64,000 nt of DNA, from sequence record OM362897.1. The stretch is one strand, 5' to 3'. The position numbers were made by a program, and so were the translations under genes. Positions within the stretch are counted from its first letter, which is position 1; each line of letters starts with the position of its first letter. Below the pieces are notes generated by a model that had not been told where the DNA came from, ran no database searches, and worked only from the letters and a program-made list of their open reading frames with translations. This document shows, piece by piece, positions 4,625-4,710 of the stretch. Source of the DNA: Escherichia phage SKA64.

Positions 4625-4710
4625 TGGCGATGAGTATAGGATTTGAACCTATATCGTTCTTTCGAACACGGATTAACAGTCCGCCGCTTAAACCATTCAG
4701 CCAACTCATC
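4625..4710 (-). tRNA. tRNA-Asn (anticodon GUU) with an unusually long variable arm
   Basis: Acceptor GAUGAGU/ACUCAUC, discriminator G, anticodon arm GCGGA-CUGUUAA-UCCGU, extra hairpin GUUC-GAAA-GAAC, T-arm AUAGG-UUCAAAU-CCUAU, CCA. 86 nt. Confidence 0.5.

Follow-up and report, generated by a model that had tools for sequence, protein, structure and literature searches.

The 64,000-nucleotide (nt) stretch of Escherichia phage SKA64 that was analyzed in this study (sequence record OM362897.1; hereafter the window) encodes a transfer RNA (tRNA) for asparagine with the anticodon GUU and a long variable arm, and this long-arm tRNA-Asn is, judging from its homologs and their covariation, widespread and clearly selected. 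According to the textbook rule, a long variable arm is found in bacteria only in tRNA-Leu, tRNA-Ser, tRNA-Tyr, and tRNA-Sec. As the best explanation we tentatively propose, at somewhat less than an even chance, that the gene encodes a working Asn tRNA of a class II-like mobile lineage, the arm of which possibly evades host defenses that cut tRNAs.

Anatomy of the tRNA-Asn gene

The window belongs to a phAPEC8-like Escherichia myovirus (Phapecoctavirus). In region 3500-5600 it shares 99.5% identity with vB_EcoM-P3322, and dozens of related phages match this region at 97-99%. According to ARAGORN a tRNA gene cluster spans 3579-5501 on the minus strand, and 4625-4710 of the same strand encodes a tRNA-Asn of 86 nt with the anticodon gtt at position 34. 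The Rfam model RF00005 matches 4628-4710 over its full length (model positions 1-71) with 62.0 bits (gathering score 29; E = 4.8e-11), and in the alignment the variable region contains 12 inserted nt, uucgaaagaacg. For a 98.9%-identical phage the depositors' tRNAscan-SE run yielded tRNA-Asn-GTT, 86 nt, at the same place, and GenBank records routinely list the gene as tRNA-Asn. The phage has no second tRNA-Asn gene. The RNA and its parts, with lengths also given in base pairs (bp), are as follows:

GAUGAGU-UG-GCUG-AAUGGUUU-AAGC-G-GCGGA-CUGUUAA-UCCGU-GUUCGAAAGAACGAU-AUAGG-UUCAAAU-CCUAU-ACUCAUC-G-CCA

4625..4710, minus strand: tRNA-Asn(GUU), class II-like, 86 nt, CCA encoded (ARAGORN, Rfam, minimum free energy (MFE) fold, tRNAscan-SE on a relative)
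4704..4710, minus strand: acceptor 5' strand GAUGAGU (nt 1-7), which pairs with 4629-4635 (nt 76-82, ACUCAUC)
4686..4701, minus strand: D-arm (nt 10-25), stem GCU/AGC of 3 bp with a G13·A22 mismatch, preceded by U8-G9 (MFE fold)
4668..4684, minus strand: anticodon arm GCGGA-CUGUUAA-UCCGU (nt 27-43), anticodon GUU at 4675-4677
4653..4667, minus strand: variable region (nt 44-58), 15 nt (Rfam, covariation, fold)
4636..4652, minus strand: T-arm AUAGG-UUCAAAU-CCUAU (nt 59-75) (Rfam, covariation, fold)
4625..4628, minus strand: discriminator G73 (4628) and encoded 3' CCA (4625-4627) (sequence)

The T-loop consensus GGUUCRANYCC, all seven acceptor pairs (among them G1-C72, A2-U71, and U3-A70), and a 7-nt anticodon loop with U33 (CUGUUAA) are present. 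In the unconstrained ViennaRNA fold (-23.7 kcal/mol, z = -2.66) five helices form, namely, a 7-bp acceptor, a 3-bp D-stem, a 5-bp anticodon stem, a 4-bp variable hairpin, and a 5-bp T-stem. The hairpin GUUC-GAAA-GAAC (4656-4667) begins directly after nt 43 and is followed by unpaired GAU (4653-4655), and the terminal U of the variable region is able to form the Levitt pair A15-U48. G9 and G13·A22 are hallmarks of class II tRNAs, the G·A combination at 13·22 being that of bacterial Leu, Ser, and Tyr tRNAs. With G9, a 3-bp D-stem, and G13·A22 the core of the window tRNA-Asn is class II-like.

An initial annotation, made from the letters of the window, had placed a tRNA-Asn(GUU) with discriminator G at these positions, had noted the hairpin in its variable region as abnormal for Asn, and had omitted the strand, which is minus. 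ARAGORN, Rfam, the fold, and tRNAscan-SE concur on the gene, and the hairpin is borne out by the Rfam insertion, the fold, and the covariation described below. The check by ARAGORN, covariance scoring, and tRNAscan-SE (on the 98.9%-identical relative) that had been recommended thus backs the 86-nt tRNA-Asn.

Covariation in the variable arm

Local ARAGORN runs yielded 103 distinct long-arm tRNA-Asn sequences, which form 47 clusters at 80% identity and have a median identity of 57% when the anticodon arm is excluded. Their variable regions are 13-17 nt long (mode 15) and consist of a stem of 3-4 bp with 0-1 unpaired nt on the 5' side and 3-4 unpaired nt on the 3' side. A GNRA tetraloop caps the arm in 63 of the 103 sequences (GAAA in 45), and 56 different stems occur. 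G73 is present in 95/103, G13·A22 in 45/103, and G9 in 42/103; class I Asn genes at the same loci have C13-G22 and A9.

Covariation was analyzed with 40 distinct family members that have a variable region of 15 nt, using segments of fixed length from the anticodon loop to the T-arm, so that there was no freedom of alignment. Compensatory, double-sided changes were found at all four pairs of the variable stem; a single position shows as many as five pair types, and pairing is seen in 89% of the stem cells. The covariation score was 0.767, compared to 0.167 for shuffled sequences (none of 500 reached the observed value) and 0.08-0.13 for slid registers, and it was comparable to that of the T-stem in the same alignment. 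Because the covariation is far above both types of controls, the variable arm of the long-arm tRNA-Asn is, on comparative grounds, a selected RNA helix.

This result also bears on the idea that the gene is a decaying pseudogene, or that the hairpin is removed before the tRNA matures. Wrecks do exist in phage tRNA clusters, examples being the Asn::fMet (formylmethionine) chimera of phage Bas34 and the tRNA-like element at 4535-4624 of the window, both treated below. However, in the window gene the stems are intact, the CCA is encoded, and the Rfam match reaches 62 bits, while the hairpin is upheld by compensatory evolution. Hence, this idea has hardly any credibility. In addition, E. coli and its phages are not known to have a splicing system for a 12-nt insert in the variable region.

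Distribution of the long-arm tRNA-Asn

A sensitive BLAST search with the 86-nt gene against 50,697 phage records returned 225 records with matches to at least 80% of the gene. Fetched records of representative phages of several lineages contain tRNA-Asn(GUU) genes of 83-86 nt:

Justusliebigvirus: phi92
Vequintavirinae: Klebsiella phage VLCpiM5a and Salmonella phage SalP219
Three T5-like genera: Epseptimavirus, Tequintavirus (AKFV33), and Novosibvirus
T4-like Karamvirus: Enterobacter phage myPSH1140

The long-arm tRNA-Asn is thereby present in at least four lineages (Stephanstirmvirinae, Vequintavirinae, Demerecviridae, and Straboviridae), and the window gene is 74-83% identical to its counterparts in phi92-, rV5-, T5-, and T4-like phages. 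The Kuttervirus Salmonella phage Maynard encodes an ordinary tRNA-Asn of 75 nt.

A pattern that combines the Asn anticodon arm with a downstream GGTTC at the distance expected for a long arm was found in at least 120 contigs of IMG/VR. When a second viral scan accepted short and long spacing alike, the variable region was long or intermediate in 15 among the first 120 matches listed (about 12%), and among the listed matches on contigs of at least 90 kb the long form was present in 7 of 19. The scan of 185,579 species-representative genomes gave 48 pattern matches, 16 of which were confirmed as long tRNA-Asn by ARAGORN, none of the 16 being from Enterobacteriaceae. Ten of the 16 reside within arrays of 7-36 tRNA genes, and hosts of such arrays, which belong to several bacterial phyla, include Micromonospora/Verrucosispora, Methyloprofundus, Agromyces, Saprospiraceae, and Bacteriovoracales. 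In 5,426 complete E. coli genomes BLAST detected no match to the gene, at the low sensitivity of a short query in a search space of 28 Gb. The long-arm tRNA-Asn is rare in cellular genomes, and widespread in phages and mobile tRNA arrays.

Among the individual loci, four from Micromonospora/Verrucosispora (L013, L014, L022, and L051), one from Methyloprofundus (L052), and one from Agromyces (L050) have long-arm tRNA-Asn within chromosomal arrays of 14-36 tRNA genes. Class I and long-arm Asn genes lie side by side in L052 (2532-2607 and 3134-3219) and in L050 (6167-6240 and 6323-6406), where the array also encodes a transfer-messenger RNA (tmRNA).

Amino acid identity

The Asn identity set of E. 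coli consists of the three anticodon bases and G73 (PMC9976931). G73 is also an antideterminant for leucyl- and tyrosyl-tRNA synthetase (LeuRS, TyrRS), C2-G71 is an antideterminant for seryl-tRNA synthetase (SerRS), U1-A72 confers amidation specificity in tRNA-Asn, and G1-C72 and G2-C71 are absolutely conserved in bacterial tRNA-Ser (PMC9976931). The anticodon arm of the phage tRNA-Asn (nt 27-43) is identical to that of E. coli K-12 asnT at 17 of 17 positions, and outside this arm the phage tRNA has no close likeness to any E. coli tRNA. Since the E. coli asparaginyl-tRNA synthetase (AsnRS) is known to read the anticodon and G73 only, charging with Asn can be inferred: very probably the tRNA is transcribed with the cluster, is charged with Asn by the host enzyme, and reads AAC and AAU as Asn. 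The variable region of 15 nt departs from the 4-5 nt of a class I body, a norm that is descriptive and has no known role as an AsnRS determinant.

The other synthetases can be considered in the same way. The window tRNA lacks the Tyr set (A73, GUA) and has G73 and U36 instead. Its acceptor starts with G1-C72, and the 2-71 pair is A-U and not the G2-C71 of tRNA-Ser; in the family, U1-A72 is present in 61 and C2-G71 in 43 of the 103 sequences. The register of the Asn arms (3-4 bp, 0-1 nt 5', 3-4 nt 3') matches that of Tyr and Leu tRNAs of the same loci, where Ser arms have 4-7 bp with 1 nt 5' and 0-1 nt 3'. We are similarly confident that G73 bars LeuRS and TyrRS and that a short arm in the Leu/Tyr register, together with A2-U71, makes a poor SerRS substrate.

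The initial annotation had suggested that the tRNA could cause misreading, which is unlikely in view of the full Asn identity set, the predicted block of LeuRS and TyrRS by G73, and the lack of the Ser pair G2-C71. The specific form of such a missense tRNA would be serylation by SerRS, which is blind to the anticodon and reads the arm and G73, so that AAC and AAU would partly be read as Ser. Ser identity indeed resides mainly in the arm and the tertiary shape, and the window tRNA has G73, G1-C72, and C11-G24, while its arm length of 15 nt is that of the phage's own tRNA-Ser(GCU), whose arm likewise has 4 bp and a GAAA cap. There is also a precedent for the mischarging of class II tRNAs with class I anticodons, namely, the nematode nev-tRNAs, which receive Leu. 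However, A2-U71 stands in place of an absolutely conserved pair, U1-A72 and the anti-Ser pair C2-G71 are frequent in the family, and both register and length of the arm fit Tyr and Leu. Moreover, the conservation of a complete Asn identity set would be pointless for a Ser acceptor, and the phage has no other tRNA-Asn. Partial decoding as Ser is therefore very unlikely.

Origin and the neighboring tRNA-Tyr

The next gene in the cluster is the following:

4717..4804, minus strand: tRNA-Tyr(GUA), class II, 88 nt, A73, CCA encoded (Rfam 39 bits; tRNAscan-SE Tyr-GTA in a relative)

It had been described as a canonical class II tRNA-Tyr(GUA). Its class and anticodon stand; the attribute canonical does not, in view of the 39 bits, an Rfam alignment that fits only with 3 extra nt (auu) inserted between nt 9 and the D-stem, and the lack of an ARAGORN call for 4717-4804 in the window. 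In GenBank it is labeled tRNA-Pseudo-GTA in one record and Tyr in others.

Two origins of the long-arm tRNA-Asn had been put forward, the insertion of a hairpin into an Asn tRNA and the duplication of a Tyr-type tRNA with a change of the anticodon, and a comparison with related phages had been advised. The 74-83% identical counterparts count against both as events in this phage. Because long-arm genes exist in phi92-, rV5-, T5-, and T4-like phages, the design predates this phage, and an insertion event in the phage itself is not supported. A class I tRNA-Asn plus an insertion is also too simple a description, because the core is class II-like.

A recent duplication of the adjacent tRNA-Tyr with a change from GUA to GUU has some features in its favor. 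The genes are neighbors, both are long-armed, the anticodon loops differ by one base, as had been pointed out, and the acceptor 5' strands are alike (GAUGAGU versus GGUGAGU). However, several of the at least four lineages with the long-arm Asn lack an adjacent Tyr gene, and the anticodon arm is identical to asnT at 17/17 and to the phage tRNA-Tyr at only 14/17 positions. The 5' half (17/28) and the 3' part (29/43) are no closer to Tyr than to the phage tRNA-Ser(GCU), the D-arm is unrelated to the Tyr D-arm, and the discriminators are G versus A, of which TyrRS requires A. The segment-wise comparison and the wide distribution of homologs rule out the recent duplication; its probability is next to nil, and in view of these comparisons we regard it as practically disproved.

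Descent of the whole family from one class II parent was also considered and rejected, because the D-arms are heterogeneous, being Cys-, Leu-, Ser-, Tyr-, or class I Asn-like. The D-arm of the window tRNA is identical to that of the Epseptimavirus long-arm Asn at 18/19 positions, and the closest type is represented by T5-type Cys D-arms. In other lineages the D-arms are nearly identical to the Leu-type (UGGCGGAAUGGUAGACGCA), Ser-type, or Tyr-type, and in the Vequintavirinae an asnT-like D-arm has been retained. To judge from these D-arms, the family probably exchanged body parts or arose more than once.

Possible reasons for the retention of the arm

We propose that the arm and the remodeled core are kept for the altered shape that they would give the tRNA at the hinge beside the anticodon stem. 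Host factors that read this shape would act less well on the phage copy than on the host tRNA-Asn, and AsnRS would be unaffected. The main candidates would be Toprim defense nucleases, e.g., AriB of PARIS and Old of P2, and Asn decoding could continue in the infected cell once the host tRNA-Asn has been destroyed. Evasion of tRNA-cutting host factors by the shape of the arm is a serious possibility, albeit one that we would sooner doubt than accept.

Several published findings form the basis of this proposal. AriB cuts E. coli tRNA-Asn(GUU) at 40|41, its second monomer contacting the D-loop, and T5 tRNA-Lys, tRNA-Thr, and tRNA-Asn jointly rescue cells from PARIS (PMC12409363). The targets of P2 Old are paired CNG motifs in the anticodon stems of tRNAs, tRNA-Asn among them (PMC12445682). 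PtuAB of Retron-Eco7 cuts E. coli tRNA-Tyr in the variable loop, and the longer loop of the SP15 tRNA-Tyr is required to neutralize it (PMC12673091). The window tRNA-Asn is the phage-encoded counterpart of a host tRNA that is cleaved by AriB and P2 Old. Its variable arm starts 2-3 nt from the AriB cut site, and the cuts of AriB and P2 Old in the anticodon stem of the host tRNA-Asn lie 2-4 nt from the arm start.

Several points weigh against this proposal. In the window tRNA the anticodon arm is identical to that of the host at 17/17 positions, including the AriB site U36AAUC|C41 and the paired CNG motif of P2 Old. No sequence change is present at or near the cleavage site; the AKFV33 and SP15 relatives carry C28U/G42A. 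Because the anticodon arm is host-identical, any escape would have to come via the shape of the arm or core. The T5 reference tRNA-Asn, a helper against PARIS, has 78 nt, belongs to class I, and carries mutations in its anticodon stem; a class I solution thus exists in T5 and may have replaced the long-arm gene there. Cys, Trp, Glu, and Ile tRNAs, none of them a known nuclease target, have long arms as well, and one case was seen for Lys. Among the Ser and Leu tRNAs of these phages, short arms with a GNRA cap are frequent too, so that the loop seems to provide stability and not a specific signal. Lastly, AsnRS is a class IIb enzyme; to judge from the complex of AspRS with its tRNA, such enzymes approach the tRNA from the side of the variable loop, and the arm could therefore hinder charging.

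The experimental data on T5 and Bas34 need a closer look. The T5 tRNA-Asn was rejected as direct support, because the reference gene is of class I and has a divergent anticodon stem. It is located at 9953-10030 on the minus strand of locus L058, and its anticodon stem is poorly paired (GCAUC-UUGUUAA-GUUGA). It occupies the slot between tRNA-Cys and rna3, which is the slot of the long-arm gene in AKFV33 and SP15, and the open reading frame T5.069 is inserted before it. Closely related phages carry, as their gene orders indicate, alternative tRNA-Asn designs. The long-arm tRNA-Asn of SP15 has been cloned and expressed in E. coli in trans, as a negative control for PrrC170. Bas34 (SelmaRatti) is sensitive to PARIS "despite encoding" a tRNA-Asn and needed the T5 tRNA-Asn in trans (PMC12409363). 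This could be taken as proof that a long-arm Asn fails against PARIS. However, the gene (L292, about 13598-13681; MZ501103) is a broken Asn::fMet chimera and hence uninformative: the 5' part of a long-arm Asn is fused in the T-arm to the 3' end of an fMet tRNA. Its 3' 27 nt are identical to T5 fMet at 26/27 positions, and the downstream flank is the sequence that follows fMet in T5. Only 4 of 7 acceptor positions pair, and ARAGORN made no call on the chimera. The broken structure probably explains why Bas34 required the T5 tRNA-Asn in trans.

An alternative to shape-based evasion is a functional Asn tRNA with an arm that has nothing to do with defenses and is either a structural solution or a legacy of a chimeric class II body. 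For example, the arm might stabilize the core of an AU-rich, possibly under-modified phage tRNA. The class II-like core (G9, G13·A22) may even make the arm obligatory, so that its loss would misfold the core. The GNRA cap that is common to the Ser and Leu arms of the same phages suggests stability, the near identity of D-arms to Leu-, Ser-, and Tyr-type D-arms in several lineages suggests body swapping, and arms on isoacceptors that are not known as nuclease targets fit as well. However, this alternative leaves unexplained why the long form makes up about 12% of the viral tRNA-Asn matches listed and is vanishingly rare in cells, and why Asn is by far the most common class I isoacceptor with an arm. 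Furthermore, the class I tRNA-Asn of the phages Maynard and T5 evidently work without an arm. Such a purely structural role is somewhat unlikely, and it deserves to be taken seriously.

Alternatively, a dedicated protein of the phage or the host might use the arm as a handle for the selective binding, processing, modification, repair, or delivery of the phage tRNA. In genuine class II tRNAs the arm is a protein-recognition element, and its position, length, and loop type are conserved in the long-arm family (mode of 15 nt, GNRA in 63/103). However, with 56 different stems the stem sequence appears to be free, and the loop is not invariant. The presence in unrelated phage lineages and hosts argues against one specific partner, and no candidate was found. 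The T5-type 'tRNA amidotransferase' was considered and rejected, because its Pfam match to YqeY (25.4 bits) is below the cutoff of 27, and tblastn of this YqeY-like protein against the window revealed no homolog. A dedicated partner protein is thus improbable.

Long arms on other tRNAs

Other class I anticodons also occur with long, mostly GNRA-capped arms, i.e., Thr(UGU), Cys, Trp, Ile, Glu, Lys, Gly, Phe, and Asp. About 10-14% of the distinct Thr, Cys, and Trp genes are long at these loci, which had been chosen for long-arm Asn, and Asn is by far the most frequent class I isoacceptor with an arm. Examples from viral loci are:

L068 4406-4492, L129 8998-9084, L096 1414-1498: long-arm Thr(UGU)
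L094 345-428, L095 13818-13901, L096 1324-1407: long-arm Cys
L098 4387-4473, L165 8187-8273: long-arm Trp
L012 1693-1780: long-arm Lys(UUU)
L096 440-525, L128 4724-4809: long-arm Ile(GAU)

The possibility that the gain of an arm coincides with the AriB target set (Lys, Thr, Asn) was dismissed: Thr(UGU) fits and Lys is represented by one case, but Cys and Trp have gained arms as well. It is conceivable that the conversion of class I tRNAs to a class II shape represents a general counter-defense route of phages, apart from point mutations. A short GNRA-capped arm and a remodeled core would still be accepted by synthetases that read anticodon and discriminator, and not by tRNases that read the shape or by other immune effectors directed at tRNAs. 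The foremost candidate would be tRNA-Asn, with Thr(UGU), Cys, Trp, Ile, and Lys as further ones; no other example would have been as successful as the long-arm tRNA-Asn, which would have spread horizontally among phages and mobile tRNA arrays across bacterial phyla. We consider this generalization doubtful.

A different, larger type of arm was seen in tRNA-Ile(UAU) of viral contigs, with variable regions of 21-26 nt and the common loop motif AGAU(A/U):

L073 313-403, L074 1697-1792, L076 9355-9446, L097 7444-7538: tRNA-Ile(UAU) with large arm
L116 3205-3298, L153 5943-6034, L167 12394-12488: tRNA-Ile(UAU) with large arm, further loci

Surroundings in the tRNA cluster

Further elements of the cluster are:

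4460..4534, minus strand: tRNA-Thr(UGU), class I (ARAGORN, Rfam)
4535..4624, minus strand: unannotated tRNA-like element directly 3' of tRNA-Asn (alignment with T5 rna3, AKFV33, and phi92)
4935..5020, minus strand: tRNA-Ser(GCU), short variable arm (4 bp, GAAA loop, 15-nt variable region)
5025..5115, minus strand: tRNA-Ser(UGA), 91 nt, with an odd D-arm (depositors' tRNAscan-SE: Ser-TGA)
5124..5153, minus strand: sigma-70-like promoter match TTGACA-18-TAGATT with TG, just upstream of Ser(UGA) (consensus scan)
5427..5501, minus strand: tRNA with the anticodon CAU (ARAGORN: Met; depositors' tRNAscan-SE on a relative: tRNA-Ile-CAT, lysidine type)

The tRNA-like element has an acceptor-like stem (GGACUUG/CGAGUCC) and a T-arm-like hairpin, GCAGG-UAUCGAAU-CCUGC, and lacks an anticodon arm. 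It is homologous to T5 'rna3', which is annotated as a putative tRNA-like RNA, and to the spacers that follow tRNA-Asn in AKFV33 and phi92, and its consensus fold contains compensatory pairs. Neither ARAGORN nor Rfam made a call for 4535-4624. Because of the homologs in T5, AKFV33, and phi92, tRNA-Asn and the rna3-like RNA can be viewed as a module that is conserved across phage families.

The three class II tRNAs of the phage are all short-armed, and both Ser tRNAs have a GAAA cap. The arm register of tRNA-Ser(GCU) (1 nt 5', 2 nt 3') differs from that of Asn. tRNA-Ser(UGA) received no ARAGORN call, and its only Rfam match, to the tRNA-Sec model, is below threshold with 37 bits. The promoter match at 5124-5153 might possibly mark the start of a transcript that includes tRNA-Asn; the consensus scan of the region gave 7 sites versus 5.8 expected, which makes such a match weak evidence. 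A RyhB-like Rfam match at 3438-3492 on the minus strand is sub-threshold (29 bits, gathering score 55). It coincides with a terminator-like hairpin at 3445-3463, past the last tRNA of the cluster, and is probably just the terminator.

Literature and implications

In full-text literature searches no paper was found that describes a long-arm tRNA-Asn from phages or tRNA arrays, or class II-shaped class I isoacceptors from either, older subscription papers on T5 tRNAs being outside their scope. The word 'variable' is absent from the paper on PARIS specificity (PMC12409363), and a 2014 review lists tRNAs with a variable arm and a class I anticodon for nematodes only. In a 2025 study the tRNA-Asn-GTT of phage Sf14 scores 'inconsistently' with isotype models, and its variable region is not mentioned. 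Apparently, the long-arm tRNA-Asn family has been undescribed so far. The published exceptions to the long-arm rule that were found are the nematode nev-tRNAs and the allo-tRNAs. The textbook rule would be widened by a large, selected viral family of tRNA-Asn with a class II shape, to which rarer counterparts for Thr, Cys, and Trp can be added, and this family may account for some 'isotype-inconsistent' tRNAscan-SE calls in phage tRNAs.

The family also offers a handle on the question why phages carry tRNAs, because the window tRNA departs from the host counterpart in its architecture and has the same anticodon arm. In practical terms, it might help to predict which therapeutic phages (rV5-, phi92-, phAPEC8-, or T5-like) withstand tRNA-targeting defenses, and the extra arm could serve as a handle in engineered tRNAs.

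Comparison with known systems

The phage tRNA shares GUU, the identical 17-nt anticodon arm, and G73 with E. coli asnT/U/V/W. However, asnT belongs to class I: its variable loop has 5 nt, its D-stem has 4 bp and includes C13-G22, and A9 and U1-A72 are present, in contrast to the 15-nt arm, the 3-bp D-stem with G13·A22, G9, and G1-C72 of the phage tRNA. With bacterial Tyr, Leu, and Ser tRNAs it has in common the long arm, the 3-bp D-stem with G13·A22, and U8-G9, and with Tyr and Leu also the arm register (0 nt 5', 3 nt 3', 3-4 bp). It differs from these class II tRNAs in the Asn anticodon, in G73 instead of the A73 that TyrRS and LeuRS need, in the lack of G2-C71, and in an arm that is shorter than Ser arms.

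The nematode nev-tRNAs likewise combine class II architecture with a class I anticodon (Hamashima et al., 2012; PMC3333845). However, they go back to tRNA-Leu, whose determinants they retain, they receive Leu, and their expression is weak (PMC3333845). The identity elements of the phage tRNA-Asn, in contrast, match its anticodon (G73, not the A73 of Leu), and faithful decoding is to be expected; the carriers of the long-arm family, moreover, are phages and bacteria. Allo-tRNAs are another example of non-standard architecture in phage tRNA clusters (Mukai et al., 2017; PMC5389517). They have acceptor/T branches of 8/4 or 9/3 and an identity of the Ser or Ala type (PMC5389517), whereas in the phage tRNA-Asn the branch is the normal 7/5, the peculiarities being confined to the variable region and the core.

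Phage tRNAs that escape nucleases are the T5 Lys, Thr, and Asn tRNAs (AriB), phage tRNA-Thr (P2 Old), and the SP15 tRNA-Tyr (PtuAB). Like these, the window tRNA is phage-encoded, and it has the anticodon of a host tRNA that is cut by AriB and P2 Old. For the SP15 tRNA-Tyr a change in the variable loop is a proven escape determinant. The known escape variants carry substitutions at or near the cut site, whereas the window tRNA differs in its overall architecture, and its resistance is putative.

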